Origin: Squalus acanthias
Taxonomy: Eukaryota
Assembly (NCBI GenBank): GCA_030390025.1
Contig: CM059432.1
Location: 144,212,001-144,276,000 of the forward strand
Reading direction: 5' to 3'
DNA: 64,000 nucleotides
A program made the position numbers and the translations under genes. Below the pieces are notes generated by a model. The model saw only the letters and a program-made list of their open reading frames with translations. It was not told where the DNA came from and made no database searches. Below are positions 3,501-48,724 of this stretch, piece after piece (position 1 is the stretch's first letter; every line of letters starts with the position of its first letter).

Positions 3501-3836
3501 TGAGCAGGGAGATCATTGAGGAAGGCCCAGTAAATAACATTTTTAGAGCAAATGCGGGGAGTGTGTGTACCAAAGTTGGATGTGTTCGTAAATATATTGT
3601 TCAGTTTGGTAAGAAGTATTTCCGTGTGCTAAGAACCAGTTCTGTTTGTTCATAAATTGTTGTGTTTGTTTGTTATTGGTTGTGTTTAATAAGAGAGAGT
3701 TATGCAGAATAATAAATGTTTATTTCAACGTGACGAATTTGGTCCTGTTTCTCATTGGAACTTTGGCCGGTCATAGGGTCTGCGAGCTGGCTGTAATGAT
3801 GTGGTTGTTGATCCCAAATGCCATCTGCTCTCTCAT

Positions 3837-4046
3837 TCATCGGAAGCGCTGTGTAATGAGGCGTTCACGAACGGCCCTTGCTGAAGCAACATTGAGCGGC
3901 TCCCTCCTACGTTGCTGCTGCTCCTCCTCCTCTTCATCCTCCTCCTCCGCCTCTTGCCCCGCCTCCTGAGGTGGTCCGCCAATCCCTGGTGGCAATGGCT
4001 GGGTCCTCAGAATGGCGAGGTTGTGCAGCATGCAGCACACAATGAT
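3837..4046 (-). pseudogene. Harbinger transposase C-terminal fragment
   Basis: VCCMLHNLAILRTQPLP plus acidic tail and RERLITQRF; homologous to 39470-39670. Confidence 0.85.
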
Positions 4047-4392
4047 GAAAACGGATGCAGGGAGGATGTTTCCCCTGGCTGGGGAGTCTAGAACCAGGGG
4101 TCACAGTCTCAGAATAAGGGGTCGGCCATTTAGGACTGAGATGAGGAGAAATTTCTTCACTCAGAGGGTGGTGAATCTTTGGAATTCTCTACCCCAGAGG
4201 GCTGTGGAGGCTCAGTCATTGATTATATTCAAGACAGAGATCGATGGATTTTTGAATATTAAGGGAATCAAGGGATATGGGGATAGTTCAGGAAAGTGGA
4301 GATGAGGTAGAAGATCAGCCATGATCTTATTGAATGGCGGAGCAGGCTCGAGGGGCTGAATGGCCTACTCCTGCTCCTATTTCTTGTGTTCT
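4047..4392 (+). mobile_element. CR1 LINE 3' end (likely continuation of 1-1312)
   Basis: RMFPLAGESRTRGHSLRIRGRPFRTEMRRNFFTQRVVNLWNSLP followed by the CR1 3' UTR. Confidence 0.9.
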
Positions 4393-4394
4393 TA

Positions 4395-6035
4395 TTATCA
4401 CCCCTGAATGGCCTGGCTCTAATTATAAGGTTATGCCCCCTTGTTCTGGACTCCCCCACCAGAGGAAATAGTTTCTCTCCATCTACCCTATTGAATCCTT
4501 TAATCATCATAAACATCTCAATCAGACCACCCCTTAATCTTCTATACTCAAGAGAGCAGTTCATAATTCTGAGAATTGATAAGGTAGATCACAAGCTACT
4601 TATGGATGAGGGAGGTCATTTGGCCCCTCTTAATTCATCCATCGAGGATAACCCTACAATCCCTTTATTGCTGCAACTAGTTGTTTCTTAAAGGATTGCA
4701 GAGTTTTCCCCGTTGTCCATTCCAAGTGAAGAAAACCTCCTGATATCAGTCCTAATGGTGTATTTTACTAGTTTGAACCTGTTTCCCCTTGTCTTAATCT
4801 CACAAATTTAATTGAAAGTAGTATTCCAGATTAACCATTTACTATTTTAGATCTTCTATAAGATCACTTTACAGAGGCCTCCTTCGTAGACCCTGGTTTC
4901 CCTCAGACTTGCTGCCACTGAGTTACCGTAACTTCAACAGGAGTGTGGTGGAACTCTCTCTGTACGCGTGTAAATGGGGTTTCTGCCATACTTGCAGCAA
5001 TGTTACATTAGCGCGAAACTAGAAAGCCCGAGGAAATTCATGGCCCAAATTCTCTCCAGTCTTTCTCCGTAACTCAGACCCTGACCCTCATGGCTCCTCT
5101 CTACACTGCCTCCAGTGACTGAGTGTCTCTCTTGTGTCTCAGCGACTTGACCTGGGCACAGTGTTCCAGGTGTGGTCTGACCAGACCTGACGTAATGTTC
5201 AAGATTCTGTCGGACCAGAGCCCTGTACAGTTTGATCATGACTTCCTGTGACTTATTTAGCACTATTTTGGCTATTGTAGGAACATAGGAACAGGAGGAG
5301 GCCATTCAGCCTCTCGAGCTTGTTCTGCCGTTCAGTTAGATCATAGCTGATCTGTATCTTAACTCTATTTACCTGCCTTGGTTCTGTAACCCTAAATACC
5401 CTTACCCAACAAAAATCTATCAATCTCAGTTTTCAATTTTCAACAGCTTTTTTGGGGCAGAGAGTTCCAGATTTCCATTACCCTTTGTGTGAAGAAGTGG
5501 TTTCTGACATCAACCCTGAATGACCTGGCTCTAATTTTAAGGTTATGCCCCTTTGTTCTAGTCTCCCCCCCCATAGAGAAAATAGTTTCTCTCTATCTAC
5601 CATATCAAATCCTTTAACCATCTTAAACACCTCAAATAGATCACCCCTTAATCTTCTATATATCATATAATATATAGTTCAACATCCTGTTAGTTTGGTT
5701 GATTGATGCTCTGCGTTGGTTGAACATGTTTAGCGTTGAGTTTACTGAGACTCCTGGGTCCCTCGCTGCTTCATTCCTGGCTATTTCATGGAGTATGCTT
5801 GTTGCCTACTTTCCCTTCCTATGTGTAATACACTACACTTGTCAGCGTTAAATTTTATCTGCCATTCTCCAGCGCACTCATTCTGTAATTTCTGGGCGGC
5901 TTCCTGTGACTCGATCGACCCTCCGTGGATCATCCGCAAATCCGCCCACTTTGCATTGCATTCCTGAGTCCAAGTGATTGTTGTGAATTACAAACAGACA
6001 ATATCGCAACACTGAGGCCTGGGACTCCCGCTCAC
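4395..6035 (-). mobile_element. Cluster of antisense CR1 fragments (4395-4556, 5277-5660 and older degenerate sequence)
   Basis: Minus-strand ORFs RRLRGDL.EVFKM.KGFD.VDREKLF and IKLYRALVR. Confidence 0.75.
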
Positions 6036-6044
6036 CCCACCCCC

Positions 6045-9000
6045 CTCACATTAAACCCGCCACCCTCACATCACCCCCCCCCACATTAACCCCTCCCCCT
6101 CACATCACCCCCCCTCACATTAACCCGCCCCCCCTCACATTAACCCCTCCCCCTCACATTAACCCCTCACATTAACCCCTCCCCCCTCGCATTAACCCCT
6201 CCCCCTCACATTAACCCCTCCCCCTTGCATTAACCCCTCCCCCTCACATTAACCCTCCTCACATTAACCCCTCCCCCCTCACATTAACCCCTCCCCCTCA
6301 CATTAACCCCTCCCCCTCACATTAACCCCTCCCCCTCACATTAACCCCCCTCACATTAACCCCTCCCCCCTCACATTAACCCCTCCCCCCTCGCATTAAC
6401 CCCTCCCCCCTCACATTAACCCCTCCCCCTCACATTAACCCCTCCCCCTCACATTAACCCCCCTCACATTAACCCCTCCCCCTCACATTAACCCCTCCCT
6501 CGCATTAACCCCTCCCCCTCGCATTAACCCCTCCCCCTCACATTAACCCCTCCCCCTCACATCACACCCCCTCACATTAACCCCTCCCCCTCATATTAAC
6601 CCCTCCCTCGCATTAACCCCTCCCCCTCACATTAACCACTCCCCCTTGCATTAACCCCTCCCCCTCACATTAACCCCTCCCACTCACATTAACCCCTCCC
6701 CCTCACATTAACCCCGCCCCCTCATATTAACCCCTCCCTCACATTAACCACTCCCTCTCACATTAACCCCTCCCCCCTCATATTAACCCCTCCCTCACAT
6801 TAACCCCTCCCTCGCATTAACCCCTCCCCCTCGCATTAACCCCTCCCCCTCGCATTAACCCCTCCCCCTCACATTAACCCCTCCCCCTCACATCACCCCC
6901 CTCACATTAACCCCTCCCCCTCACATTAACCCCTCCCCCTCACATTAACCCCTCCCCCTCACATCACCCCCCCTCACATTAACCCCTCCCCCCTCACATT
7001 AACCCCTCCCCCTCACAGTAACCCCTCCCCCTCACATTAACCCCTCCCCCTCACATTAACCCCCCCTCACATTAACCCCTCCCCCTCACATTAACCCCTC
7101 CCCCTCGCATTAACCCCTCCCCCTCACATTAACCCCTCCCCCTCACATTAACCCCTCCCCCTCGCATTAACCCCTCCTCCCTCACATTAACCCCTCCCCC
7201 TCGCATTAACCCCTCCCCCTCACATTAACCCCTCCCCCTCACATTAACCCCTCCCCCTCACATCACCCCCCTCACATTAACCCCTCCCCCTCACATTAAC
7301 CCCTCCCCCCTCACATTAACCCCTCCCCCTCACATCACCCCCCTCACATTAACCCCTCCCCCTCACATTAACCCCTCCCCCCTCGCATTAAGCCCTCCCC
7401 CTCACATCACCCCCTCACATTAACCACTCCCTCTCACATTAACCCCTCCCCCCTCATATTAACCCCTCCCTCACATTAACCCCTCCCTCGCATTAACCCC
7501 TCCCCCTCACATTAACTCCTCCCCCTCGCATTAACCCCTCCCCCTCGCATTAACCCCTCCCCCTCACATCACCCCCCCTCACATTAACCCCTCCCCCTCA
7601 CATTAACCCCTCCCCCTCACATTAACCCCTCCCCCTCACATCACCCCCCCTCACATTAACCCTTCCCCCCTCACATTAACCCCTCCCCCTCACAGTAACC
7701 CCTCCCCCTCACATTAACCCCTCCCCCTCACATTAACCCCCCCTCACATTAACCCCTCCCCCTCACATTAACCCCTCCCCCTCGCATTAACCCCTCCCCC
7801 TCACATTAACCCCTCCCCCACACATTAACCCCTCCCCCTCGCATTAACCCCTCCTCCCTCACATTAACCCCTCCCCCTCGCATTAACCCCTCCCCCTCAC
7901 ATTAACCCCTCCCCTCACATTAACCCCTCCCCCTCACATCACCCCCCTCACATTAACCCCTCCCCCTCACATTAACCCCTCCCCCCTCGCATTAACCCCT
8001 CCCCCTCACATTAACCCCTCCCCCTCACATTAACCCCTCCCCCTCACATCACCCCCTCACATTAACTCCTCCCCCTCGCATTAACCCCCCCCTCACATTA
8101 ACCCCTCCCCCTCACATTAACCCCTCCCCCTCACATTAACCCCTCCCCCTCACATTAACCCCTCCCCCCTCACATTAACCCCTCCCTCACATTAACCCCT
8201 CCCCCTCACATTAACCCCTCCCTCGCATTAACCCCTCCCCCTCACATTAACCCCTCCCCCTCACATTAACCCCTCCCCCTCACATTAACCCTCCCCCCCT
8301 CACATTAACCCCTCCCTCACATCACCCCCCCTCACATTAACCCCTCCCCCTCACATTAACCCCTCCCCCTCACATTAACCCCTCCCCCCTCACATTAACC
8401 CCTCCCCCTCGGATTAACCCCTCCCCCTCGCATTAACCCCTCCCCCTCACATTAACCTTCCCCCCTCACATCACCCCCCTCACATTAACCCCTCCCCCTC
8501 ACATTAACCCCTCCCCCCTCACATTAACCCCTCCCCCCTCACATTAACCCCGCCCCCTCACATTAACCCCTCCCCCCTCACATTAACCCCTCCCCTCACA
8601 TTAACCCCCTCACATTAACCCCTCCCCCTCACATTAACCCCTCCCCCCTCACATTAACCCCTCCCCCTCACATTAACCCCTCCCCCTCACATTAACCCCT
8701 CCCCCCTCACATTAACCCCTCCCCCCTCACATTAACCCCTCCCCCCTCACATTAACCCCTCCCCCTCACATTAACCCCTCCCCCTCACATTAACCCCTCC
8801 CCCCTCACATTAACCCCTCCCCCCTCACATTAACCCCTCACCCCTCACATTAACCCCTCCCCCCTCACATTAACCCCTCCCCCTCACATTAACCCCTCCC
8901 CTCACATTAACCCCTCCCCCTCGGATTAACCCCTCCCCCTCACATTAACCCCTCCCCCTCACATTAACCCCTCCCCCTCACATTAACCCCCCTCACATTA

Positions 9001-11705
9001 ACCCCTCCCCCTCACATTAACCCCTCCCTCGCATTAACCCCTCCCCTCGCATTAACCCCTCCCCCTCACATTAACCCCTCCCCCTCACATCACACCCCCT
9101 CAACATTAACCCCTCCCCCCTCATATTAACCCCTCCCTCGCATTAACCCCTCCCCCTCACATTAACCACTCCCCCTTGCATTAACCCCTCCCCCTCACAT
9201 TAACCCCTCCCACTCACATTAACCCCTCCCCCTCACATTAACCCCGCCCCCTCATATTAACCCCTCCCTCACATTAACCACTCCCTCTCACATTAACCCC
9301 TCCCCCCTCATATTAACCCCTCCCTCACATTAACCCCTCCCTCGCATTAACCCCTCCCCCTCGCATTAACCCCTCCCCCTCCGCATTAACCCCTCCCCCT
9401 CGCATTAACCCTCCCCCTCACATCACCCCCCCTCACATTAACCCCCTCCCCCTCACATAACCCCTCCCCCTCACATTAACCCCTCCCCTCACATCACCCC
9501 CCCTCACATTAACCCCTCCCCCCTCACATTAACCCCTCCCCCTCACAGTAACCCCTCCCCCTCACATTAACCCCTCCCCCTCACATTAACCCCCCCTCAC
9601 ATTAACCCCTCCCCCTCACATTAACCCCTCCCCCTCGCATTAACCCCTCCCCCTCACATTAACCCCTCCCCCTCACATTAACCCCTCCCCCTCGCATTAA
9701 CCCCTCCTCCCTCACATTAACCCCTCCCCCTCGCATTAACCCCTCCCCCTCACATTAACCCCTCCCCCTCACATTAACCCCTCCCCCTCACATCACCCCC
9801 CTCACATTAACCCCTCCCCCTCACATTAACCCCTCTCCCCTCGCATTAACCCCTCCCCCTCACATTAACCCCTCCCCCTCACATTAACCCCTCCCCCTCA
9901 CATCACCCCCTCACATTAACTCCTCCCCCTCGCATTAACCCCTCCCCCTCACATTAACCCCTCCCCCTCACATTAACCCCTCCCCCTCACATTAACCCCT
10001 CCCCCTCACATTAACCCCTCCCCCCTCACATTAACCCCTCCCTCACATTAACCCCTCCCCCTCACATTAACCCCTCCCTCGCATTAACCCCTCCCCCTCA
10101 CATTAACCCCTCCCCCTCACATTAACCCCTCCCCCTCACATTAACCCCTCCCCCCCTCACATTAACCCCTCCCTCACATCACCCCCCCTCACATTAACCC
10201 CTCCCCCTCACATTAACCCCTCCCCCTCACATTAACCCCTCCCCCCTCACATTAACCCCTCCCCCTCGGATTAACCCCTCCCCCTCGCATTAACCCCTCC
10301 CCCTCACATTAACCTTCCCCCCTCACATCACCCCCCCTCACATTAACCCCTCCCCCTCACATTAACCCCTCCCCCCTCACATTAACCCCTCCCCCCTCAC
10401 ATTAACCCCGCCCCCTCACATTAACCCCTCCCCCCTCACATTAACCCCTCCCCTCACATTAACCCCCTCACATTAACCCCTCCCCCTCACATTAACCCCT
10501 CCCCCTCACATTAACCCCTCCCCCTCACATTAACCCCTCCCCCTCACATTAACCCCTCCCCCCTCACATTAACCCCTCCCCCCTCACATTAACCCCTCCC
10601 CCTCACATTAACCCCTCCCCCTCACATTAACCCCTCCCCCCTCACATTAACCCCTCCCCCCTCACATTAACCCCTCACCCCTCACATTAACCCCTCCTCC
10701 TCCCCCTCACATTAACCCCTCCCCCTCACATTAACCCCTCCCCTCACATTAACCCCTCCCCCTCGGATTAACCCCTCCCCCTCGCATTAACCCCTCCCCC
10801 TCACATTAACCTTCCCCCCTCACATCACCCCCCCTCACATTAACCCCTCCCCCTCACATTAACCCCTCCCCCCTCACATTAACCCCTCCCCCCTCACATT
10901 AACCCCTCCCCCTCACATTAACCCCTCCCCCCTCACATTAACCCCTCCCCTCACATTAACCCCCTCACATTAACCCCTCCCCCTCACATTAACCCCTCCC
11001 CCCTCACATTAACCCCTCCCCCTCACATTAACCCCTCCCCCTCACATTAACCCCTCCCCCCTCACATTAACCCCTCCCCCCTCACATTAACCCCTCCCCC
11101 CTCACATTAACCCCTCCCCCTCACATTAACCCCTCCCCCTCACATTAACCCCTCCCCCGCACATCACCCCCCTCACATTAACCCCCCCCCCTCACATTAA
11201 CCCCTCCCCCTTACATTAACCCCTCCCCCTCACATTAACCCCTCCCCCTCACATTAACCCCTCCCTCGCATTAACCCCTCCCCCTCACATTAACCCCTCC
11301 CCCTCACATTAACCCCTCCCCCTCACATCACCCCCCCTCACATTAACCCCTCCCCCTCACATCACACCCCCTCACATTAACCCCTCCCCCTCACATTAAC
11401 CCCTCCCCCTCGCATTAACCCCTCCCCTCACATTAACCCCTCCCCCTCGCATTAACCCCTCCCCCTCACATTAACCCCTCCCCCTCACATTAACCCCTCC
11501 CCCTCACATTAACCCCTCCCTCACATTAACCCCTCCCCCTCACATTAACCCCTCCCCCTCACATCACCCCCTCACATTAACCCCTCCCCCTCACATCACA
11601 CCCCCTCACATTAACCCCTCCCCCCTCACATTAACCCTCCCCCCTCAGATTAACCCCCCTCACATTAACCCCCACTCACATTACCCCCCCCCAACCCTCA
11701 CATCA
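6045..11705. repeat. ~5.6-kb C-rich minisatellite, ~19-bp unit TCACATTAACCCCTCCCCC
   Basis: Direct tandem repetition with variable C-run lengths and kb-scale duplicated blocks of variant units. Confidence 0.98.
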
Positions 11706-11889
11706 CCCCTCTACCCAGTACCGTTTTTCTACCCTTCAGCCAGTTTCTTATCAATACCCAGGTTTTACTCTGAACCCCCACAGCTTGAGTTAATTAGTAA
11801 TCTTTCCTACGGCAGTTTATCTAATGCCATTTTCAAGTTTCATTCTATAACATCTACCACAGTCAACTTGGATTGTTACTCCTTCAAAG

Positions 11890-12455
11890 AAATAGGGGAA
11901 GAAAATTCATGTCCACCACGAGAGTTGAAGAAGAAGAAGAAGAAGAAACACCATCACTCAATTTCACATTCCCAGCCACCAGCTCCTCAAGGTCGACTAG
12001 CAAGGCCATCTACAGTGTCCCCTACTGAAAGTCAGCAGCCTTCCACCAGCCATGCTGCAGCCACTGGGGTAGCACTGCATGATATCAGTAGAATAGGCAA
12101 AGGCACACACAAGACAGTCACTAAGAGAATGCATACAGATGATGAGTTGATTTCTTGATGTCATATTGGATGGATAGATGTATAAAGTTGGATTGGAAAG
12201 TTTGCTTTGTGGTAGCTTTTATTTCAGCATTATGGCCAAGAGGACTCTGCGATGGTCAGTAACAGAGGGAAGGTAAGGTGTGGGACTAATGCTGAAAGGG
12301 GAATTGGGGTTGTGGTAACTGGAACCACAGGCGATGATTCCATCCCGGATATCCTGGCCAGAAAGGGGCTGTCTGGGTTGCATCCTTCCTTCTGCTTCCT
12401 CCTCTTCTGCTTCCTCCTCTTCAGCTTCTTCCTCTTCTGCGTCTTCCTCTTCCCT
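11890..12455. mobile_element. Harbinger remnant: convergent 3' ends of the Myb gene (+) and the transposase (-)
   Basis: ARPSTVSPTESQQPSTSHAAATG matches the Myb C-termini of copies 1 and 2; acidic transposase tail on -. Confidence 0.7.
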
Positions 12456-12535: not shown

Positions 12536-12546
12536 AGACCTGAGCC

Positions 12547-14220
12547 TAATCCCACTTTCCAGCTCTTGGTCCATAACCTTGTAGGTTACGGCACTTCAAG
12601 TGCATATCCAAGTACTTTTTAAATGTTTCTGCCTCTACCACCCTTTCAGGCAGTGAGTTCCAGACCCTCACCACCCTCTGGGTGAAAAAGGTTCTCCTCA
12701 ACGCCCCTCTATTCCTTCTACCAATTACTTTAAATCTATGCCCCCTGGTTATTGACCTCTCTGCTAAGGGAAATAGGTTCTTCCTATCCACTCTATCTAG
12801 GCCCCTCATAATTTTATACACCTCAATTAAGTCTCCCCTCAGCCTCCATTGTTCCAAAGAAAATAACTCCAGCCAACCAATCTTTCTCATAGCTAAAATT
12901 CTCCAGTCCTGGCAACATCCTCGTAAATCTTCTCTGTACCCTCTCTAGTGCTATTACATCTTTCCTGTAATGTAGTGACCAGAACTGTACACAGCACTCT
13001 AGCTGTGGCTTAACTAGTGTTTTATACAGCTCAAGCATAACCTCCCTGCTCTTATATTCTATGCCTCGGCTAATAAAGGAAAGTATCCTGTATGCCTTCT
13101 TAACTGCCTTATCTACCTGTCCTGCTATCTTCAGGGATCTGTGGACATGCACTCCAAGGTCTCTCTGTTCCTCTACACTTCTCAGTATCCTACCATTTAT
13201 CGTGTATTCCCTTGCCTTCTTAGCCCTCCCCAAATGCATTACCTCACACTTCTCCAGATTGAATTCCATTTGCCACTTTTCTGCCCACCTGACCAATCCA
13301 TTGATATCTTCCTATAGTCTACAGCTTTCTTTCATGCCCCCTACATTGAAGTCTAAATCATTGACATATACCACAAAAAGCAAGGATCTAGTATTGAGCC
13401 CTGCGGAACCCCACTGAAACAGCTTTCCAGTCACAAAAACACCGTCAGCCATTACCCTTTACTTCCTGCCACTGAGCCAATTTTGGATCCAACTTGCCAC
13501 TTTCCCTTGGATCCCATGGACTTTTACTTTTCTGACCAGTCTGCTATGTGGGACCTTGTCAAAAGCCTTGCAAAAATCCATGTAGACTACATCAAACGCG
13601 CTACCCTCGTCGACCCTCCTTGTTACCTCCTCAAAAAGTTTAATCAAGTTAGTCAGACACGACCCTCCCTTAACAAATCCATGCTGACTGCCCTTGATTA
13701 ATCTGTGCCTTTCTAAATGACTATTAATACTGTCCCTCAGAATTTTTTCCAATAATTTGCCCACCACAGAGGGTAGGTTGATTCTCCCTTTTTAAACAAT
13801 GGTACAATGTTAGCAGTCCTCCAATCCTCCAGCACCACACCTGTAGCCAGAGAGGATTGGAAAATGATGGTCAAAACCTCCGCTATTTCCTTCCTTGCTT
13901 CTCTTAACAACCTGTGATACATTTCATCCAGGCCTAGAGATTTATCTACTTTCAAAGATGCTAAACTTCTTAATACTTCCTCTCTCACTATGTTTATCTC
14001 ATCTAATATTTCACACTCCTCCTCCTTAATTACAACGTATGCATCGTACCTCTCTTTTGTGAAGATAGACGCAAAGTATTCATTAAGAACCATACCCATG
14101 TCTTCCACCTCCACGCACAGGTTACCTTTTTGGTATCTAATAGGCCCTACTCTTTCTTTAGTTATCCTCTTGCTCTTTACGTATTCATAAAACAATCTTT
14201 GGGTTTCCCTTGATGTTACT
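12547..14220 (-). mobile_element. CR1 LINE, degenerate ORF2 plus 3' end
   Basis: Overlapping minus-strand ORFs with CR1 RT and C-terminal motifs (QHGFVKGGSCLTNL, WQMEFN.EKCEVMH, RRLRGDLIEVYK). Confidence 0.95.
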
Positions 14221-14221
14221 T

Positions 14222-14512
14222 GAGTCTGCTTGCACGCTGGGTTTACTGGCGTGCTTAGGACCCAGCGCTGAACTCAGCGCAAAGGTCCAAGGTCGCCGTG
14301 GTGACGTTAAGTCAGTGTTGCACGCCGACTGATGTCACCACTACCTCATTTAAATCTGCAGGGCGATACATCTTAACGGCAGTGCTGATGGGCCTGGGAA
14401 AATGGAGGACGCCATGGGACCCACCACCAGCTGGCGAAAGAGTGGCGGCTGCCCTCTTTTCGCCACTTTTTACCGTAATGGGTTTCGCAAAGTCCCCCCA
14501 ATTTTTTAGCCT
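14222..14512. mobile_element. Probable Harbinger-type subterminal/terminal fragment
   Basis: GC-rich segment ending CAATTTTTTAGCC, resembling the other TIR ends; may be the far end of the 11890 remnant. Confidence 0.4.
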
Positions 14513-14630
14513 AAAGGAGATTGGTCAGGTCGGATCTTCACTGTCTAAAGCTGTGTTGACTGCTATTTATTAGGTTGTTGTTGTATCGATAATCCTCAAG
14601 TTTACCCCTGATAAACGACTGCCTTATTGT

Positions 14631-15095
14631 GTCAGCTGTGGCTCAGTGGGTAGCACACTTGCCTCTGCGTCAGAAGGTTGTGGGTTCAAGTCCCACTCCA
14701 GGGACTTCAGCACATAAATCTAGGCCGACAGTGCAGTGCTGAGGGAGTGCCGCACTGTCGGAGGTGCCGTCTTTCGGATGAGACGTTAAACCGAGGCCCC
14801 GTCTGCTCTCTCAGGTGGGCGTAAAAGATCCCATGGCACTATTTCAAAGAAGAGCAGGGGAGTTATCCCTGGTGTCCTGGCCAATATTTATCCCTCAATC
14901 AACACAACAAAAACAGATTATCTGGTCATTATCACGTTGCTGTTTGTGGGAGCTTGCTGTGCGCAAATTGGCTGCAGCGTTTCCTACATTACAACAGTGA
15001 CTACACTCCAAAAAAGTACTTCATTGGCTGTAAATCACTTTGAGACGTCCGGTGGTCGTGAAAGGCGCTATGGAAATGCAAGTCTTTCTTTCTTT
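14631..15095 (+). mobile_element. Full-length tRNA-derived DeuSINE (SacSINE1-like)
   Basis: A box TGGCTCAGTGG (~14639), B box GGTTCAAGTCCC (~14683), central domain, and L2-like tail AAAGGCGCTAT..AAATGCAAGTCTTTC. Partial copies near 25150, 25580, 27330, 29470, 42200, 44205, 46105(-), 52285(-), 56480(-), 59785 and 61420(-). Confidence 0.85.
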
Positions 15096-15100
15096 TACCA

Positions 15101-15189
15101 AAATGAGAAGTCGCACAACACCAGGTTATAGTCCAATAGTTTTATTTAAAATTACGAGCTTTCGGAGCTGCTGCTCCTTCATCAGGTAG
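15101..15189 (-). mobile_element. Short PLE 3'-terminal fragment (family A) with hammerhead motif
   Basis: Near-identical to 18711-18795 in reverse orientation. Confidence 0.85.
15152..15189 (-). ncRNA. Minimal type-I hammerhead ribozyme motif
   Basis: TAC-CTGATGA-A-GGAGC-AGCA-GCTCC-GAAA-GC-TC-GTA. Confidence 0.75.
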
Positions 15190-17020
15190 AGGTCTTTTAT
15201 CTGGGATTGAAGTAAGACTGGTGGGTCCCTGGTGCCTGTGTCTGTTTAGTTCCTCCTTCCTGAATATAGGCATCACATTAGTCCGTGGAAGCAAGTTTGA
15301 ACTGTCAGCACAAAACAAAGGACATAAATATAAAATTTAAAAAAGCCTGATGCAAAATTTAAAATTTAAAGGATTTTTTTCCCCTGGAGGTGTGGGTCTG
15401 GAACAAAGAACTCTCAGATGAAACAGTTAAAGTGTTGTGTCGACTAACATCTTCATAAAAGAGCTGGATAAAGCTCAGGTGATGATTGGGAGTAACTGAT
15501 ACATACAGAGCAGGAGGTGTTAGCTCAGACTGTGTGGACATAATGGTGCAATAATTGGCTTCACCAGATTAGGGAGGTGACAATTGACTTGGACTCGATC
15601 TACCCTAATCCCATTTCCCTGCCCTTTCCCCGTAGCCATTTATATTTTTCCTTTCAAGTCTTTATTCAATTCCCTTTTAAATGTCCTAGTTTCTGCCTCA
15701 ATAGCGACTTCAGGTAAAGATTCCACGTTCTCACAGTTCCCTGAGTGAAAACATTACGTTATTTGAGTGATAATCCCCAGTCTAAACCCCCTTCATAACC
15801 AGTGGGAACAATCTTTCACTGTTTACCCCCTCGCACCTTTTACAAGTTTAAAACCCTCTCATCAGTTGTCAGTTGCTGTTGTTTGTTGATGTTTGTACCT
15901 CCGTGTAAAGAGATTACAGTTTCTCTGCTGGCAAACTAATGGCTCCTGATGTCTGCGCAGCCTCCAAACTAATGGTGATTCTCCAATTGCACTCCCTGTG
16001 TTTAGTAATTACTCCTGGCACAGAGCAAGGCATTTTGGACAAGAGATAGGACAGGTGCAGTGCTGGGTCTGCTTCGAGATCTTTCTGTCTGATCAGTGGA
16101 TGAAAGACATGATCTTCTTTGGATAGAAGACCAGGACTGTTTATAAAAATGGCCCTTCCCAACCATTAGTTACTAATTAAATTCATTGTACCAAATATTA
16201 TTAGGTTATGGGAGAAGCTAAAGGGAAGCTATTTAACTTTCAACAACCTCAGATCAATCAAATGTTTAGCGCAAAACAGGTTTGTCAGAAAAGCAGGAAT
16301 CCTTCAAAACAAAACAAAATTTAGAATAACAGGATCCTGAAAATAGACTAATCGGATTATATCAGATTTGCAGATTCTGTACGTAGAGCTGACTGACTGA
16401 ATTAGTTCTTTCTGTCGATCTTCATATGGCTTTTACTGAAACATGTTTCCAGATCTATAATTGCTTGGTAGTCCTGCAGAGAATATAAATTTCTAATTTG
16501 CATATTTGTTCCTATTTAGTTTGTAATATTTAAAATATGTTGCACCACAAGTATGCTAAAATTAAATCTTGAATCTCCCACTGGGAACTCTAAAATCGAT
16601 CTTCTGTAACCCTTAATCATAGAATCATAGAATAGTACAGCACAGAAGGAGGCTATTCGGCCCATCGAGTCTGCGCTGGCTCTCGAAGAGCAATCCAGTT
16701 AGTCCCACTCCCCCGCTCTTTCCCAATATCCCAGCAATTTTTTTCTCCTTCAAGTATTTATCCAATTCCCTTTTAATGGCGACTATTGAATCTATATCCA
16801 CCACCCTATCAGGCAGTGCATTCCAAATCCTAACCACTCGTTGTGTAAAAAAGATTTTCCTCATGTCGACTCTGGTTCTTTTGCCAATCACCTTAAATCT
16901 GTGGCCTCTCGTTATCGGCCCCTTCAGCCATTGAAAACAATTTCTCCTTGTTTACTCTATCTAAACCTTTCATGAGAAGTCGCACAACACCAGGTTATAG
17001 TCCAACAGATTTATTTAATT

Positions 17021-17058
17021 TTACAAGCTTTCGGAGCTGTCGCTCCTTCCTCAGGTAA
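17021..17058 (-). ncRNA. Hammerhead motif in the inverted PLE arm
   Basis: Reverse complement of 18711-18748. Confidence 0.75.
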
Positions 17059-17664
17059 GTTAGCAGTGAGAGAATCTCCCAGAATTCACAATTTAAACAC
17101 AGACAAAATCTATTCAAATATTTCCCTACATCAAAGACACACTAAGAGCACAGCCAAGACAATGAGATGTGTCCCAGGGGGTCCAACGTGTCAAACCACC
17201 TGCTGGCTGCATATCCTGTCAATTTGTGTTGGTTGTGTTAGTCTTTTTAAAAAAAAAACCACCTGGGAAGACCGGCCATGATGTCAAGTCACGTTCTGTA
17301 TCGTGACATGAACCCGATATCGCGATTGAGGCCATCCTCATGAGTGCGGAACTTGGCTATCAGTTTCTGCTCTATGATTTTGCGCTGTCGTGTATCCCGA
17401 AGGCCGCCCTGGAGAACGCTTACCCGCAGATCCGAGGCTGAATGCCCCTGGCTGCTGAAGTGTTCCCCAACTGGAAGGGAACCCTCCTGCCTGGCGATTG
17501 TTGCGCGGTGTCCGTTCATACGTTGTCTCAGTGTCTGCATGGTCTCGCCGATGTACCATGCTCTGGAGCATCCTTTACTGCAACGTATCAGGTAGACAAC
17601 GTTGGCCGAGTCACATGAGTATGTACCGTGTACCTGGTGGGTAGTGTCCTCACGTGTGATGATG

Positions 17665-18477
17665 GTACACAGGATCTGCTCAGACGAGGAGGAACGCGAT
17701 GGACACCTACGGACACTGAAAGACGCCCTCGTAAGAACAGGATATGACGCTCGACTCGTCGATCGACAGTTCCGACGGGCCACAGCGAAAAACCGCATAG
17801 ACCTCCTCAGAAGACGAACACGGGACACAACCAACAGAGTACCCTACGTCGTCCAGTACTACCCCGGAGCGGAAAAACTACGCCATGTTCTTCGCAGCCT
17901 TCAACATGTCATCGATGACGACGAACACCTTGCTAAGGCCATCCCCACGCCTCCACTACTCGCCTTCAAGCAGCCGCCTAACCTCAAAAGTACCATCGTT
18001 CGCAGCAGATTACCCATCTTTCAGGAGAACAGCAACCAAGACACCACACAACCCTGCCACGGCAACCTCTGCAAGACATGCCAAATCATGGACACAGATA
18101 CCATCATCACACGTGAGGACACTACGCACCAGGTACACGGTACATACTCATGTGACTCGGCCAACGTTGTCTACCTGATACGTTGCAGTAAAGGATGCTC
18201 CAGAGCATGGTACATTGGCGAGACCATGCAGACACTGAGACAACGTATGAACGGACACCGCGCAACAATCACCAGGCAGGAGGGTTCCCTCCCAGTCGGG
18301 GAACACTTCAGCAGCCAGGGGCATTCAGCCTCGGATCTGCGGGTAAGCGTTCTCCAGGGCGGCCTTCGGGATACACGACAGCGCAAAATCATAGAGCAGA
18401 AACTGATAGCCAAGTTCCGCACTCATGAGGATGGCCTCAATCGCGATATCGGGTTCATGTCACGATACAGAACGTGA
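17665..18477 (+). CDS. PLE ORF C-terminal part: RT thumb/linker, Cys-rich linker, GIY-YIG endonuclease (5'-truncated)
   Basis: RICS..L...GY, FKQPPNLKSTIVRS, PCHGNLCKTC, NVVYLIRC..C...YIGET..LRQRMNGH, EHF, EQKLI..F.T...GLNRD. Confidence 0.9.
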   Translation, partial: VHRICSDEEERDGHLRTLKDALVRTGYDARLVDRQFRRATAKNRIDLLRRRTRDTTNRVPYVVQYYPGAEKLRHVLRSLQHVIDDDEHLAKAIPTPPLLAFKQPPNLKSTIVRSRLPIFQENSNQDTTQPCHGNLCKTCQIMDTDTIITREDTTHQVHGTYSCDSANVVYLIRCSKGCSRAWYIGETMQTLRQRMNGHRATITRQEGSLPVGEHFSSQGHSASDLRVSVLQGGLRDTRQRKIIEQKLIAKFRTHEDGLNRDIGFMSRYRT

Positions 18478-18710
18478 CTTGACATCATGGCCGGTCTTCC
18501 CAGGTGGTTTTTTTTTTTTTAAAAAGACTAACACAACCAACACAAATTGACAGGATATGCAGCCAGCAGGTGGTTTGACACGTTGGACCCCCTGGGACAC
18601 ATCTCATTGTCTTGGCTGTGCTCTTAGTGTGTCTTTGATGTAGGGAAATATTTGAATAGATTTTGTCTGTGTTTAAATTGTGAATTCTGGGAGATTCTCT
18701 CACTGCTAAC

Positions 18711-18748
18711 TTACCTGAGGAAGGAGCGACAGCTCCGAAAGCTTGTAA
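18711..18748 (+). ncRNA. Minimal type-I hammerhead ribozyme motif in the PLE 3' UTR
   Basis: TTAC-CTGAGGA-A-GGAGC-GACA-GCTCC-GAAA-GC-TT^GTAA; stem I TTAC/GTAA, stem II GGAGC/GCTCC, palindromic stem III AAGCTT. Confidence 0.8.
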
Positions 18749-19111
18749 AATTAAATAAATCTGTTGGACTATAACCTGGTGTGCGACTTCTCATTTTTGT
18801 CCACCCCAGTCCAACGCCGGCATCTCCACATCATAAACCTTTCATGATTTTGAACACCTCTATCAAATCTCGTCTTAGCCTTCTCTGCTCCAAGAAGAAC
18901 AACCCCAGCTTCTCTAGTCTATTCACGTAACTGCATTCCCTATCCCTGGAACCATTCTAGTAAATCTCTTCTGTATCCTCTCCAAAGCCTTCATGTCCTT
19001 CCTAAAGTGCGGTGCCCAGAATTGGACTCAATACTCCATCTGGGGCCAAATTAATGTTTTATATAGGTTTAGCATAACTTGCTGGCTTTTGTACTCTATG
19101 CCTCTATTTAT

Positions 19112-19332
19112 AAAAATGAGAAGTCGCACAACACCAGGTTATAGTCCAACAGATTTATTTAATTTTACAAGCTTTCGGAGCTGTTCGCTCCTTCTTCAGA
19201 CCCTACCTGAAGAAGGAGCGAACAGCTCCGAAAGCTTGTAAAATTAAATAAATCTGTTGGACTATAACCTGGTGTTGTGCGACTTCTCATTTTTGTCCAC
19301 CCCAGTCCAACGCCGGCATATCCACATCATGA
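19112..19332. mobile_element. Non-coding palindromic PLE mini-element with two back-to-back hammerhead cores
   Basis: 88-bp arms 19112-19199 and 19207-19294, 7-nt spacer, then the same tail; CCTCTATTTATAAA duplicated at 19101-19114 and 19333-19346. Confidence 0.9.
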
Positions 19333-19345
19333 CCTCTATTTATAA

Positions 19346-19780
19346 ATGCGGAGATGCCGGTGTTGGACTGGGGTGGACAAAATTGTTATAGTCCAACAGT
19401 TTTATTTTAAATCACAAGCTTTCGGAGTTACAACTCCTTCGTCGGGTGAAGTGAGGAGATACAGAATCGTCAAAGCATATATAGGTAGAGAACAATGCAT
19501 GTATAACTTACAATTGCAGACAACTGAATTCAATCATCCTGACTGTTTATCTGCCGAGGTGTGATAAAGTTAATCAGGTCAGCCAGGAAGGTACCACATC
19601 AAAGACATAGCAAGATACAACTGAGACAATTAGGTGGAATCGCATGGGGTCTAACGTGTCAAAAGCTGCCGTCTGTATGTAAAACGATTAACTTTAAAAT
19701 TTTTACTTTTTTACTGGGAATCACATCTGTGAACAAGCCAACGACGACTCGAGTCCGGATTTATTTATTTATTTATTTAT
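19346..19780 (-). mobile_element. Third PLE 3' fragment (diverged subfamily) with a hammerhead variant at 19412-19449
   Basis: Tail, then TCAC-CCGACGA-A-GGAGT-TGTA-ACTCC-GAAA-GC-TT-GTGA, then ~330 bp of putative UTR and (TTTA)n; TATTTATAAA repeated at 19781-19790. Confidence 0.8.
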
Positions 19781-20419
19781 TATTTATAAAGCCCAGGATC
19801 CCATATGCTTTATTAACTGCTTTCTTAACCTGTCCTGCCAAGTTCAAAGGTTTGTGCAGAAGCACCCCCAGGTCTTTCTGTTCTTGCACCCACTTTAAAA
19901 TTGTGCCATTTAGTGTGTACGGTCTCTCCTCATTCTTCCTACCCAAATGTATCTCTTCACACTTCTCTGTGTTGAATTTCATCTGCTATGTGTCCGCCCA
20001 TTCCACCAGCTTGTCTATGTCTTCTTGAAGTCAATACTAGCTTCCTCACTGTTTACTACACTTCCGTGTCATCTGCAAATTTCGAAATTGTGAAATCTCC
20101 GATACTACAAAATATTAGAGGTGATCTGGGGCTCACTGGGGAAACAGTGACCAAGGAAATGTATCTCAGGAACTGGGTGCAAAGCCTGTGATTTTCTCTC
20201 GAGGTAATCTCTCTGTGAGTGCCCGACTGTGGAATTACCCCAGGGTCCGTGTGTAGTAAAGAACCGACAACAAGCGCCCTCACTATGACACCTCATCACT
20301 GAAACACACCTTTATGTAAGGTTCCCAGATATAGTGCAATATCCACTGTACCAAACTATTTATCAAAGTGTGTCTGCTTCGAGGATTAACTAAATGCTCA
20401 TTAAATTGAATAACATAAT

Positions 20420-21765: not shown

Positions 21766-22435
21766 AAAGCTGTAACTGCTGCTATTGCTGGTTGCTTTGC
21801 GTAGTATTCTGTGCTGTCCCCTTGTAGATACCAGGAATCACCTCAGCCATAAACGTTAAGGGCAGTGGTGCCCATCTCTGCCCCTGGGAGCGCCCCTATA
21901 GGTCTTGTGTACCAGATGGCATCACTCATTCGCAGTGTTACTCATCATTCACCGCTCCTCTGTGAGGTTCAGTAGCTGACTCTGTTCTCTTTTGCTTTTG
22001 GGTAGTTTTTGCTCTCAGTGGATAGTCTTCTGTGCAATCGACGCTTCTCGATCCACCTCTCTTGCCATATCAATACTATGATGTATCCAACAAACTTCCC
22101 TACACCTATTCTATGAAGCTCAAAGGATTGTTCCGTCAAAATCTTCCATCAATATAATAACTCCAGCTCTGTGTGTCAGTTAGAACTCCATAGTCCTTTA
22201 GATTCTACTCATCATACTATTTTTCACGATAGGTCATTAACAAAACTTTAATAAGCCGTAACCAGCAATTATTTGTTTACCAAAGACAACACGTATTTTT
22301 GAGAAATCTGCATAATAAAAGAAATGGCCGTAACATCTTAAAAAACAGGTTCCTACTTCTTTTAACACACAAAGAGGGAAAATATATCCCACAGTGATCA
22401 GTTTCTTGATCGAAAAACCAATGGTTGATTGACTC

Positions 22436-23020
22436 AGTTTCTCCAATGTCCAGTAATGTCTCTCCAATGTCCAGTGATGTCTCTCCAATGCCCAGTGATG
22501 TCTCTCCAATGTCCAGTGATGTCTCTCCAATGTCCAGTGATGTCTCTCCAATGTCCAGTGATGTCTCTCCAATGTCCAGTGATGTCTCTCCAATGTCCAG
22601 TGATGTCTCTCCAATGCCCAGTGATGTCTCTCCAATGTCCAGTGATGTCTCTCCAATGTCCAGTGATGTCTCTCCAATGTCCAGTGATGTCTCTCCAACG
22701 TCCAGTGATGTCTCTCCAATGTCCAGTGATGTCTCTCCAATGTCCAGTGATGTCTCTCCAATGTCCAGTGATGTCTCTCCAATGTCCAGTGATGTCTCTC
22801 CAATGTCCAGTGATGTCTCTCCAATGTCTAGTGATGTCTCTCCAATGCCCAGTGCTATTTCTCCAATGCCCAGTGATGTCTCTCCAATGTCCATTGATGT
22901 CTCTCCAATGTCCAGTGATGTCTCTCCAATGTCCAGTAATGTCTCTCCAATGTTCAGTGATGTTGTCTCTCTAATGTCCAGTGCTATTTCTCCATTGTCC
23001 AGTGATGTTGTCTCTCCAAG
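22436..23020. repeat. 21-bp minisatellite TCTCCAATGTCCAGTGATGTC, ~27 copies
   Basis: Direct tandem repeats. Confidence 0.97.
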
Positions 23021-23555
23021 GTCCAACGGCAATAGGTTTACTGGAGGACCTGAAGACTCCTCTACTGAGTTGTCTTCCAGAATTTTGATCATCATATTGC
23101 AGAACAGAAACCACTGTTGGATACAATTCCAAAAACTTCCATCAGTCATCTGTAATCATGAACATTCTAAGGATTTTTTTTCTCATGCAAAGAAATCAGT
23201 CATTTGTTTTGTGAGAAAACAAATTCTCTCAGTGTGGTCACAAGCTGAGCTAACAAGAGAAACAGTTCCGTCTGTTTCAATCCCACAGCTGATGAGCAAT
23301 TTCTCTTTGTATTGTATTTAGTTAAAGTCTGTAACTGTGAAGCAGTCTTCTGCCCAGAGTGCACCCGCGTGCCTGCTGTAAGGAAGTGGTGTTGAAAGCC
23401 AGACATTTACTTAAAAGGAGCCATGATTATTTTAGGATTAAACATTGGCTGCCAAAATCTGAACTGTATGTATGAAAGAAATATTTTAAAAGCGTATTAA
23501 ACATCAGGAATCCTCGGTGGAATTGACATTTAACAGAAGAATATACTGCACATAC

Positions 23556-23905
23556 CATGAGGGGTTTTGATAGAGTAGATAGGGAAAAACCGTTTCCAGT
23601 GGAGGGAGGGTGGGTAACCAGAATACACAGATTTAAGATAAATGGCAAAAAAGCCAAGGGGGAGATGAGGAGCAATTTTTTTATGCAGCGAGTTGTTGTG
23701 ATCTGGAATGCACTGCCTGAAAGGGTGGTGGAAACAAATTCAATAGTAACTTTCAAAAGGGAATTGGCTATATACTTGAAAAGGAAAGATTTGCAGGGCT
23801 CCGAGAAAGAGCAGGGGGTAGTGGGGCTAATTGGAGAGCTCTACCAAAGAGCCGGCATAGGCACTAAGGGGCAAATAGCCTTATGTGCTGTATCATTCTA
23901 TATTG
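23556..23905 (+). mobile_element. CR1 3' fragment
   Basis: MRGFDRVDREK.FP..NFFMQRVVVIWNALPERVV. Confidence 0.9.
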
Positions 23906-24004
23906 TATGGGAGGAAGTCAGTTTTTAAGCGATGTTCTTGACACATTTGTTTGTCATGGTCTGAACGACACCACATTACGGCCCTTCTTGTTGTTGCTTG
24001 TCAT

Positions 24005-25096
24005 CGCACCAATGCAGGTGAGGCTGTGGATTGCACCAACGCAGGTGAGGCTGTGCATGGCACCAATGCAGGTGAGGCTGTGAATTGCACCAACACAGGT
24101 GAGGTTATGCATCACACCAATGCAGGTGTGGCTGTGCATTGCACCAATGCAGGTATGGCTGTGCATGGCACCAATGCAGGTGATGTTGTGCATTGCACCA
24201 ACACAGGTGAGGCTGTGCTTTGCACCAATGCAGGTGTGGCTGTGCATTACACCAACGCAGGTGAGTCTGTGAATTGCACCAATGCAGGTGAAGCTGTGTA
24301 TTGCACAAATGCAGGTGTGGCTGTGAATTGCACCAATACAGGTGTGGCTGTGAATTGCACCAATGCAGGTGTGGCTGTGCATTGCACCAATACAGGTGTG
24401 GCTGTGAATTGCACCAATGCAGGTGTGGCTGTGCATTGCACAAATGCAGGTGTGGCTGTGAATTGCATCAATACAGGTGTGGCTGTGAATTGCACCAATG
24501 CAGGTGTGGCTGTGCATTGCACCAATACAGGTGTGGCTGTGAATTGCACCAATGCAGGTGAGGCTGTGCATTGCACCAATACAGGTGTGGCTGTGAATTG
24601 CACCAATGCAGGTGAGGCTGTGCATTGCACCAATACAGGTGTGGCTGTGAATTGCACCAATGCAGGTGAGGCTGTGCATTGCACCAATACAGGTGTGGCT
24701 GTGAATTGCACCAATGCAGGTGTGGCTGTGCATTGAACCAATACAGGTGTGGCTGTGAATTGCACCAATGCAGGTGTGGCTGTGCATTGAACCAATACAG
24801 GTGTGGCTGTGAATTGCACCAATGCAGGTGAGGCTGTGCATTGCACCAATACAGGTGTGGCTGTGAATTGCACCAATGCAGGTGTGGCTGTGCATTGAAC
24901 CAATACAGGTGTGGCTGTGAATTGCACCAATGCAGGTGTGGCTGTGCATTGCACCAATGCAGGTGAGTCTGTGAATTGCACCAACGCAGGTGTGGCTGTG
25001 AATTGCACCAACGCAGGTGTGGCTGTGAATTGCACCAACGCAGGTGTGGCTGTGAATTGCACCAACGCAGGTGTGGCTGTGCATTGCACCAACGCA
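24005..25096. repeat. 27-bp minisatellite TGCACCAATGCAGGTGTGGCTGTG(A/C)AT, ~40 copies, with a 54-bp dimer structure
   Basis: Direct tandem repeats with alternating variants. Confidence 0.97.
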
Positions 25097-26289
25097 ACCC
25101 CATTTTTTGCTATGAGGATTACTTTGTTTTTTCTCATCTACCTTCTTCTGGCTAATATTTATCCCTTAAGCAACATCACTGAAACAGATTATCTGGTCAT
25201 TTGTCGCATTGCTGTTTGTGGGAGTTTGCTGTGCGCATATTGACATTTCCTACATTACATTGGGCTGTTGTCATCCAGGGAATATACTGCTAGTCGATCA
25301 GCTTGCCACTCAATTCTTTGTTTAAGGATTTGACTGTAACCCAGTAATCCAATCTGCTCAGACACTGATACACTATTTATCTGAAACGGAATGTGTCCCC
25401 CTACTGATCAGTTCACTGGATGTAGTGGGACACCTCTGAGGTGAACCTGGATACAGTAAAACCTTCAAACACAGGTGAGGCTGTGCATTGCACCAACACA
25501 GGTGAGGCTGTGCATTGTACCAACACGGCTCCAATTTTTGCTACGAGGTTCACTTTGTTTATTCTCATCTACCTCCTTCTGGCCAATATTTATCCCTTAA
25601 GCAACATCACTGAAACAGATTATCTGGTCATTTGTCTCATTGCTGTTCATGGGCGCTTGCTGTGCGCAAATTGGCTGCTGCGTTTCCTACATTACAACAG
25701 TGACTACACTCCAAAAGTACTTTATTGGTTGTAAAGCACTTTGGGACGTCCTGAGGCTGTGAAAGGCGCTGTATAAATGCGAATTCTTTCTTTCTACCCC
25801 AATGAAGATAATTGTTGAGGAGCAGCCTCGGTCCCAGTCACAGTGGTTTACTCCCCAGAAAACGACTGCATTGAGGGTTCAGAATGTTCCTTTGATCTCC
25901 CAGTAGACATCTGGCATTGGAAGATCAAAGGCGGCGTTGTAATCTACCCAGCTCTGGTGCTGCTGCTAGAGTCATTCCTGCTGCTGCTCAGAGATCACAG
26001 CACCTATACTCCCCAATCTGCTTCTTCCATCTTTTGAATTTGCTTGGTTTTAAAAAAATAGATGGAAATGCCGACTATTTCCACATATCTGCCTCTCTGC
26101 TGCTTTAATTCCAATTCACGGTTTTCATTTTATCTCTCTGCTTTTATTCTGCTCACGTGTTATTATCTATTGCTCAGATTATGAGCTAGTTTCTCGTTTT
26201 GCTGTTTCCATCTCCTGCCTCCGTTCCGCCTCCCCTTCCTCCTGCTCCCTGTTTTATCGCAACCTTGGTGTCATATGTGACCCTGAAAT

Positions 26290-48250: not shown

Positions 48251-48259
48251 TGACCTGGT

Positions 48260-48720: not shown

Positions 48721-48724
48721 TGAG

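Follow-up and report, generated by a model that had tools for sequence, protein, structure and literature searches.

A minimal hammerhead motif in the pseudo-LTR of a Neptune-type Penelope-like element from the shark Squalus acanthias

The window analysed here, a 64,000-nt stretch of Squalus acanthias DNA, contains six copies of a minimal hammerhead motif (15152-, 17021-, 18711+, 19165-, 19204+ and 19412-), which are distributed over four insertions of a single Neptune-type Penelope-like element (PLE). The motif, situated in the element's pseudo-LTR, is probably a minimal type-I hammerhead; the four insertions are 5'-truncated. The hammerhead is putatively a slow ribozyme that acts as a dimer or with protein assistance. 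This reading builds on the layout of the motif, its placement between the 3' UTR and the tail, and a structure-neutral divergence between subfamilies, which can be read directly from the DNA. As such, the motifs are unexceptional members of an already described class, the PLE minimal hammerheads of many animals.

Motif copies and the insertions that carry them

All six copies were recovered by a covariance model at E<=1.8e-9, with the next of the 16 matches in the 64-kb window at E 0.62; the model had been trained on four of the six. A separate descriptor scan gave five matches, against 0.01 on average in each of 100 dinucleotide shuffles, which rules out a chance origin of the motifs. No further copies were detected in the window by either scan. 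The positions given in a preliminary description, which had proposed searches of the Infernal or RNAMotif type, are thereby borne out within the scope of the 64-kb window.

18711..18748, + strand: hammerhead A+, TTAC-CTGAGGA-A-GGAGC-GACA-GCTCC-GAA-AGCT-T-GTAA; predicted cut 18744/18745; complete layout
17021..17058, - strand: hammerhead A-, same sequence as A+; H17 at 17025
19204..19240, + strand: hammerhead B+, core CTGAAGA; stem I 3 bp; loop GAACA; H17 at 19237
19165..19199, - strand: incomplete motif B-, starting at C3 with the stem I 5' strand missing; 38 bits versus 58-61
19412..19449, - strand: hammerhead C, TCAC-CCGACGA-A-GGAGT-TGTA-ACTCC-GAA-AGCT-T-GTGA; U4C core
15152..15189, - strand: hammerhead D, core CTGATGA; stem I 3 bp; loop AGCA; H17 = C at 15156

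The core C3-U4-G5-A6-N7-G8-A9 with G12-A13-A14-A15.1...U16.1-H17 is present in five of the six copies. The exception is 19412-, which reads CCGACGA (U4C) where a CUGANGA core had been described throughout. Three features occur in every copy: a 5-bp helix II opening with G10.1-C11.1, an unpaired extra A after A9, as noted previously, and the palindrome AGCT without a loop 3. Loop II (GACA, GAACA, AGCA, TGTA) and N7 (G, A, T, C) vary, also as reported. In contrast, the uniform layout attributed to all six copies is fully matched only by 18711+ and 17021-, the identical arms of one insertion. Helix I has 4 bp in three copies and 3 bp in two (15152- and 19204+), where CTAC/GTAA leaves an uncompensated C.A in a stem that had been taken as intact. 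It is absent from 19165-, which carries GGGT in place of the 5' strand because this arm stops at C3 at the inversion junction. H17 is U in five of the six copies, a point counted against a cleaving ribozyme; U17 is published for PLE minimal hammerheads in the available text of PMC4209133. The predicted cut after 18744 agrees with the position of H17 in 18711+. The features of canonical Rfam-type hammerheads (a looped stem III, loop 1/loop 2 contacts, an Rfam match) are absent: no hammerhead family was among the 11 Rfam matches at E<=5 across the whole window, and the descriptor scan found no intramolecular stem III. Folds of five stretches did not extend helix I beyond 4 bp, with z only -0.9 to -1.9 relative to shuffles. 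Two scans of a bacterial and archaeal genome collection gave zero matches to the motif and zero to the box downstream of it.

16972..18833, no strand assigned: insertion A, a 5'-truncated PLE with head-to-head arms inside the 3' end of a CR1-like LINE
16972..17667, - strand: inverted arm of A, a copy of 18099-18794 without tail
17668..18477, + strand: ORF fragment with no internal stops; RT thumb, C-X4-C-X2-C linker, GIY-YIG-like endonuclease (VVY..YIG) and CCHH residues; Neptune-type layout
18754..18775, + strand: conserved box on the 3' side of the motif, with AATAAA followed by GTTGGACT (18763-18770), complementary to the tail (alignment and fold)
18795..18833, + strand: PLE tail, 39 nt, containing AGTCCAAC (18808-18815)
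19114..19332, no strand assigned: insertion B, a head-to-head pair of pseudo-LTR arms with no difference across 85 bp, spacer 7 nt
19346..19759, - strand: insertion C, a diverged subfamily with 3' UTR, pseudo-LTR lacking about 20 nt (internal deletion) and tail
15098..15192, - strand: insertion D, a solo pseudo-LTR without tail at the 3' end of a dispersed SINE-like repeat

The motif lies 234 nt 3' of the endonuclease (EN) stop, and the tail starts about 50 nt downstream of the motif; this is the position of a PLE pseudo-LTR. Together, motif layout and element anatomy support the earlier assignment to minimal type-I hammerheads of Penelope pseudo-LTRs. The six copies had been treated as separate, whereas two motif pairs are mirror arms, which leaves four insertions in a region that measured about 2 kb before they arrived. 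The arms of insertion A differ by 5 substitutions over 693 aligned bases and those of B by none over 85. Target duplications flank A (TAAACCTTTC(ATGA) at 16962 and 18834) and B (CCTCTATTTATAA at 19101 and 19333); C has ATTTATAA on either side and an (ATTT)n run at 19759-19787, and D has a candidate 7-bp duplication, TCTTTTA, at 15091 and 15193. The 39-nt tail, a concept taken for PLEs from the parts of PMC8557442 and PMC11167929 consulted, is present on A+, B+ and C and missing from A-, B- and D. No arm (0/6) starts at the predicted cut site, and all six cDNAs span the uncleaved junction. The copies are solo or head-to-head, with no retrozyme-like head-to-tail tandem units bearing a complete motif.

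The ORF is homologous to RT-EN proteins of sharks, and its endonuclease fragment is 91% identical to that of the sevengill shark Heptranchias perlo (P0001). RVT_1 is found in relatives, this one included; the ORF in the window is itself truncated upstream and comprises the thumb-EN part. In the RT-EN alignment C130, C135, C138, C173, C177 and H197 are invariant and the second His is present in four of five rows. The GIY-YIG and CCHH motif names follow the available text of PMC8557442, and the assignment of residues to them is our own reading. No Pfam family, and hence no EN family, matches the fragment. Based on the predicted layout of its C-terminal EN, the element is assigned to the Neptune type; a reduced linker also exists in Nematis. 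In a catshark, the reading frame of gene model P0008 continues through a homologous pseudo-LTR, and the resulting peptide would allow the same stems. Among nine candidate homologues of this read-through peptide only the peptide itself was found, and in none of the 41 proteins compared is the pseudo-LTR joined to an N-terminus. The tail end of insertion B reads ...CACATCATG, and the ATG of the ORF is possibly located at the tail end; no ATG occurs inside the motif here.

Divergence between insertions A and C

The stem covariation previously described among the copies does exist as two compensated pairs. However, both come from 19412- alone: 2/9 pairs are compensated, from one of four sequences, and 30/500 shuffles reach the same score. 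Support for selection instead comes from one informative sequence comparison, insertion A against C, in which eight of the nine substitutions in the motif fall in loop II, N7 or the compensated pairs. Depending on the model, 1 to 267 of 100,000 random placements are as structure-neutral (p 1e-5 to 3e-3). Ten of 11 catalytic-core positions are kept, whereas four of five free positions are changed. The motif is less conserved overall (29/38) than the downstream box (24/25) and the tail (34/37), which is counted against the ribozyme reading. Because the differences are structure-neutral, this comparison supports past selection on the structure in master elements, as opposed to the local inserts. 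The claim of selection on the RNA structure is thus supported, although by a route other than six covarying copies.

The compensated pairs could also have arisen without selection at the RNA level, through template-switch correction of a DNA hairpin or through coincidental double transitions within a single old copy. Consistent with this, both pairs are double transitions confined to a single copy with a score that shuffles can match, and the probability that four stem changes form two partner pairs by chance is 0.012. Such an origin is nevertheless improbable, as the stem I strands are merely 4 bp long and separated by 30 nt, and the substitutions spare the single-stranded core as well. In addition, TCAC/GTGA is probably not private to 19412-, because the catshark peptide fits that stem I.

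Stem III, cleavage and alternative roles

Using standard numbering, the productive stem III would be AGCU (A15.1-G-C-U16.1), and the AAGCUU 6-mer, in which A14 pairs with U17, would be a competing fold. This revises the previous stem III (AAGCTT/AGCT), for which pairing between two copies, and only between two, is upheld. A single copy is unable to close stem III because A15.1-G-C-U16.1 has no loop. In the five copies with a stem I, the double hammerhead folds at -16.7 to -18.7 kcal/mol, 7-10 above the dimer MFE in secondary-structure terms, which is counted against cleavage; for the B copies the AAGCUU fold is the dimer MFE. In the proposed mechanism, two copies in a tandem transcript would pair via the AGCU palindrome and exchange stem I strands to form a double hammerhead. 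This structure may cut slowly after H17, probably aided by the element's own protein, and cleavage would reduce readthrough or multimeric RNA to unit-length molecules, possibly for circularisation. Because monomers would cleave only weakly, the template would keep its 3' motif intact. Reverse transcription would then begin 50-90 nt downstream, at the tail end or 39 nt inside, and pass through the site, which would account for the junction being present in all six cDNAs. Likewise, priming from both target strands is proposed to be the cause of the head-to-head arms, of which only one has a tail. The local copies themselves are most likely inert, because in A and B each copy is trapped in a long hairpin formed with the mirror arm, C has U4C and D is solo. 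According to the available text of PMC3088659, U4C "considerably decreases activity in vitro".

The three short arms (B-, B+ and D) all end at the 5' edge of the motif, 0-7 nt before C3. An upstream AGACC(T)CTAC is common to B+ and D and missing from A; downstream, B is nearly identical to A. Conceivably, though doubtfully, the hammerhead edge is a programmed end of short cDNAs, set by a defined RNA 5' end such as a start site or a spliced leader directly before helix I. A comparable arrangement is that of Penelope in Drosophila virilis. The result would be a non-autonomous ribozyme-plus-tail mini-element of 90-130 nt, and its copying from both target strands could give perfect head-to-head hairpins. 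If so, the motif would act equally as a limit to reverse transcription and as a nuclease. Splicing was considered as the source of the B and D 5' ends; against it, A lacks an AG immediately before helix I.

These arm ends, the uncut site in all six cDNAs and the U4C change in C also speak for a conserved fold that serves mainly for something other than cleavage, as a protein-binding, RT-pause or template-switch element or as a passenger, with cutting marginal in vivo. Core mutants of an anole element insert normally (PMC11167929, in the part available), and hammerheads as PLE parasites are an idea raised in the accessible text of PMC8557442. Such a role is credible yet unlikely: catalytic-core positions are retained between A and C while free ones change, and the anole motif shows C3/G8 cleavage loss and rescue (PMC11167929, same part). 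A local host function is very improbable, whether as a double hammerhead of A+ and B+ or with the B hairpin as a microRNA precursor. A+ and B+ are on the same strand, 492 nt apart, with compatible stems, and the four insertions are clustered, but the forced heterodimer costs 79 kcal/mol because B+ is locked with B- in a ~90-bp hairpin and A+ is paired with A-; the folding energy rules out this pairing at the locus. The Rfam mir-1597 match at 19160-19246 (E 8e-8) scores 52 bits against a 93-bit cut-off, equally on both strands, and was rejected as a generic perfect inverted repeat. A putative slow ribozyme in a PLE pseudo-LTR remains the preferred reading.

Relation to known elements

The features presented as noteworthy in the preliminary description are already defining ones of PLE minimal hammerheads in the available part of Cervera & de la Pena 2014 (PMC4209133): an extra nucleotide 9/10.1, a palindromic 15.2-16.2 and compensatory changes within a genome. 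The motifs fit the consensus in its Fig. S3 text (NNN-CUGANGAH-GNNNNN..NNNNNC-GAAAN-palindrome-NU-H-NNN). Shared with the hammerheads described there are the CUGANGA core, G10.1-C11.1, a 3-5 bp helix I, the lack of a loop 3, H17 = U/C, an AU-rich 3' flank and pseudo-LTR siting that includes opposite-strand pairs. The Chrysemys (turtle) row has a 4-bp stem I, CUGAAGAA, a 5-bp stem II and the AGCU-U junction seen here, and the Petromyzon row has UCAC/GUGA, as in copy C. In contrast, the G15.2-C16.2 order of the shark copies is less common there, U4C sets one shark copy apart, and the rows of Fig. S3 covered contain no cartilaginous fish. The same source reports thousands of such motifs per genome in the PLEs of fish, coelacanth and frog, and weak, dimer-only cleavage by the Schistosoma minimal motif.

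A functional parallel in the consulted part of Frangieh et al. 2024 (PMC11167929) is Poseidon_Ac (PAc) of Anolis, in which cleavage is protein-assisted, two RT start sites define the tail and unprocessed RNA is the template. Counted against the ribozyme reading are that core mutations in this element do not affect insertion and that no RNA-seq reads end at the cut site. Like the shark element, it has a hammerhead upstream of two RT starts, a 30-40 nt tail, AT-rich targets and an uncut site in genomic copies. Unlike it, it belongs to the Poseidon clade, which lacks the cysteine linker, its ORF begins within stem II and its activity was seen in vitro, whereas the shark motif is known from sequence alone. 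Neptune PLEs, as described in the available text of Craig et al. 2021 (PMC8557442), share a C-terminal GIY-YIG-type EN, a CX2-5CxxC linker, CCHH, 5' truncation, an inverted 5' copy and a one-ended tail, and differ in that the shark window holds the thumb-EN part only; Naiad PLEs in that text thrive without hammerheads, a further point against the ribozyme reading. Non-LTR retrozymes (PMC7229834; bioRxiv 10.64898/2026.07.22.740005, in the parts consulted) are likewise short non-coding type-I elements of proposed PLE pseudo-LTR origin, reported in one sampled chondrichthyan. They form head-to-tail arrays of mostly canonical motifs, unlike the minimal, solo or head-to-head shark copies.

No description of a cartilaginous-fish Neptune family was found in the literature searched, and the supplements of PMC4209133 or of the bioRxiv report could list a shark family. 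At most, the present motifs add one such family, which alone has little significance. What PLE hammerheads do in vivo is a genuine question, which these truncated, self-paired copies make no more testable than existing systems do. The youth of this family, with arms 99-100% identical and the EN frame open, may nevertheless make the positions of cDNA ends relative to the motif informative genome-wide.

Insertions that carry the motifs

The six motif copies, named by start and strand, are distributed over four insertions of one Penelope-like element (PLE), each comprising one or more copies (arms) of its terminal repeat, the pseudo-LTR.

PLE insertions and their motif copies (window coordinates)
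A (18711+, A+; 17021-, A-), 16972-18833: 5'-truncated element with ORF fragment (17668-18477), 3' UTR, motif, AATAAA box and 39-nt tail
B (19204+, B+; 19165-, B-), 19114-19332: two head-to-head pseudo-LTR arms, 85 bp identical, tail on one arm, 13-bp duplication
C (19412-), 19346-19759, minus strand: diverged subfamily
D (15152-), 15098-15192: solo arm without tail, candidate 7-bp duplication

The last 696 bases of A are repeated upstream as an inverted, tail-less copy (5 substitutions in 693), with a 10-14 bp duplication on both sides. The standard PLE arrangement combines inverted copies on the 5' side with a tail of 30-40 nt at a single end and duplications of 8-10 bp. By paralogue comparison, A, B and C all lie in the 3' end of one LINE. 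B and C share a target site (19101-19113, 19333-19345), and B thus inserted precisely at the tail end of C, whose subfamily is diverged and older. The LINE is presumably CR1-like. At the other junction of C, an (ATTT)n microsatellite (19759-19789) is present that is absent at the empty paralogous site (42649). D is located at the (CTTT)n 3' end of a dispersed SINE-like repeat (14630-15097, about nine paralogues). All four insertions of the 64-kb window fall in ~2.1 kb of pre-insertion sequence (15098-19759 today; p ~1.6e-4 under uniform placement, a raw value uncorrected for window choice). Any transcript of the near-perfect inverted repeats at 19114-19292 (85 bp) and 16972-18794 (~696 bp) would fold into long double-stranded RNA; the shorter repeat gives rise to a spurious Rfam mir-1597 match.

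Elsewhere, the window contains Harbinger-like transposon remnants with Myb/SANT and DDE_Tnp_4 domains (1626-2081, 38580-39642, 39843-41357; inverted homology between ~2-3.5 kb and 39.5-41.3 kb), LINE fragments (560-1477, 12546-14273, 33318-35196, 37544-38146; RVT_1 or APE-type endonuclease matches in pieces scanned at 560, 33321 and 34687), long minisatellites of extreme strand skew (6000-12000, 22311-23089, 23884-25200, 46977-48400, 48686-50400; units of ~19, 21, 27, 29 and 9-12 nt) and an assembly gap at ~49.3-49.6 kb.

A search with the ORF fragment returned 15 matching proteins among 1,459 candidates (472-2000 residues), led by an uncharacterised Heptranchias perlo protein (91% identity, 54-member cluster) and followed by other shark proteins; full-length relatives contain RVT_1. 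In the alignment, a C-X4-C-X2-C linker precedes a VVY..YIG endonuclease (EN) motif with CCHH residues, the order of the Neptune/Nematis layout in passages of PMC8557442. A Pfam scan of the fragment gave no match, and the putative Neptune-type label is based on motifs rather than on a Pfam match or tree. Shark gene models annotated as septin 5a, NOXP20-like, XRCC5, PPP1R12A-like, IFIT5-like and DIPK2Ab (P0006, P0008, P0009, P0011, P0013, P0023) contain parts of the PLE ORF, through exonisation or else annotation artefacts.

Motif integrity and probable selection on pairing

The six motifs of the preliminary description were all found in the window. A descriptor was run over both strands that required stem I of at least 2 bp, C[U/C]GANGA, stem II of at least 4 bp, GAAA, a stem III either palindromic or paired, and UH, and that allowed an extra base ahead of stem II. 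It matched five times in all, versus 0.01 times per shuffle (100 dinucleotide shuffles). A covariance model trained on four copies recovered all six at 38-61 bits, with all other matches at or below 12 bits (16 matches in total); together these results exclude a chance origin. The common layout claimed for them is complete in 18711+ and 17021-, which are identical, but is not uniform in the remainder: in 19204+ and 15152-, stem I is 3 bp plus a terminal C.A; 19165- begins at C3 and lacks the stem I 5' strand; and 19412- has the core CCGACGA (U4C), in passages of PMC3088659 a known natural variant that weakens activity. No hammerhead family was among the Rfam matches in the window, a negative result, though perhaps an expected one for a motif without stem III.

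The compensated stem changes described previously do exist, but C is their only source. Across four independent sequences, all from the window, 34 of 36 cells are paired and two of nine pairs changed on both sides; 30 of 500 shuffles scored as high or higher, and the covariation score on its own is weak. The placement of changes is a stronger test of selection. Of the 38 positions, nine distinguish A from C: N7, U4, three positions of loop II and the four that make up the two compensated pairs. When changes were placed at random, 1 to 267 of 100,000 trials had no more than one that was disruptive, the count varying with the transition bias and the tolerance of G-U pairs; the D result is marginal (570 to 5,857 of 100,000). 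Site classes followed hammerhead numbering, but were assigned post hoc with the sequences known.

In the catshark (Scyliorhinus), gene model P0008 translates through the homologous EN, UTR and pseudo-LTR. Back-translation of 13 residues yields 256 of 14,155,776 sequences that fit the layout, with wobble bases free and pairing hence unproven; all 256 have TCAC/GTGA, GGAGC/GCTCC and G12 changed to A. This peptide suggests that the motif may be common to different sharks.

Predicted cleavage

Because A15.1-G-C-U16.1 is unable to fold back, stem III has to form in trans. In the secondary-structure model, a double hammerhead is possible, yet lies 7-10 kcal/mol above the dimer MFE, which in the B copies is built on a 6-bp AAGCUU duplex that would bury A14 and U17. 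This unfavourable fold agrees with reports that a Schistosoma minimal motif is inactive as a monomer and of low activity as a dimer (PMC4209133), and that the anole PLE hammerhead cleaves only with protein (PMC11167929). The motif is probably a slow, gated ribozyme that works between consecutive pseudo-LTRs in tandem transcripts. The junction is intact in 6/6 arms and none (0/6) starts at N1.1, which argues that templates were uncut or religated, as described for the anole element (PMC11167929). That element, in which RT starts at two sites and both strands are nicked, also fits the tail/no-tail arm pairs. At the present locus, the motifs are probably dead, since in the modelled folds B+ is trapped in a ~90-bp hairpin, A+ pairs with A- over its whole length, and a forced A+/B+ dimer costs 79 kcal/mol.

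Motif edges and standing of the family

Downstream of the predicted cut site, GTTGGACT (18763-18770) is complementary to AGTCCAAC (18808-18815) in the tail, and the same boxes occur in B+ and C. The MFE folds for A and C, unlike that for B+, include their pairing, within which the internal RT start site would be enclosed; because the boxes are invariant, the pairing is without covariation support. Antisense to the motif 5' edge (17050-17060, +), A has CAGGTAAGT, a consensus-like splice donor, and D has CAGGTAG.

The short arms D, B- and B+ have 5' ends (15192, 19199 and 19200, respectively) 0-7 nt upstream of C3 in three of three cases; the upstream AGACC(T)CTAC is common to B+ and D and differs in A. 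These ends at the motif 5' edge are the sole loose end deserving genome-wide attention.

In the alignment of PMC4209133, a turtle row has the same AGCU-U junction, and many helices I are 3 bp. In the non-subscription hammerhead literature on shark, elasmobranch or Callorhinchus, no description of the PLE family was found; a 2026 preprint (bioRxiv 10.64898/2026.07.22.740005) does describe tandem retrozymes in one chondrichthyan. The preliminary description is confirmed in part, its interpretation overstated though broadly right in outline, and the shark hammerhead copies are a genuine instance of an already known kind.
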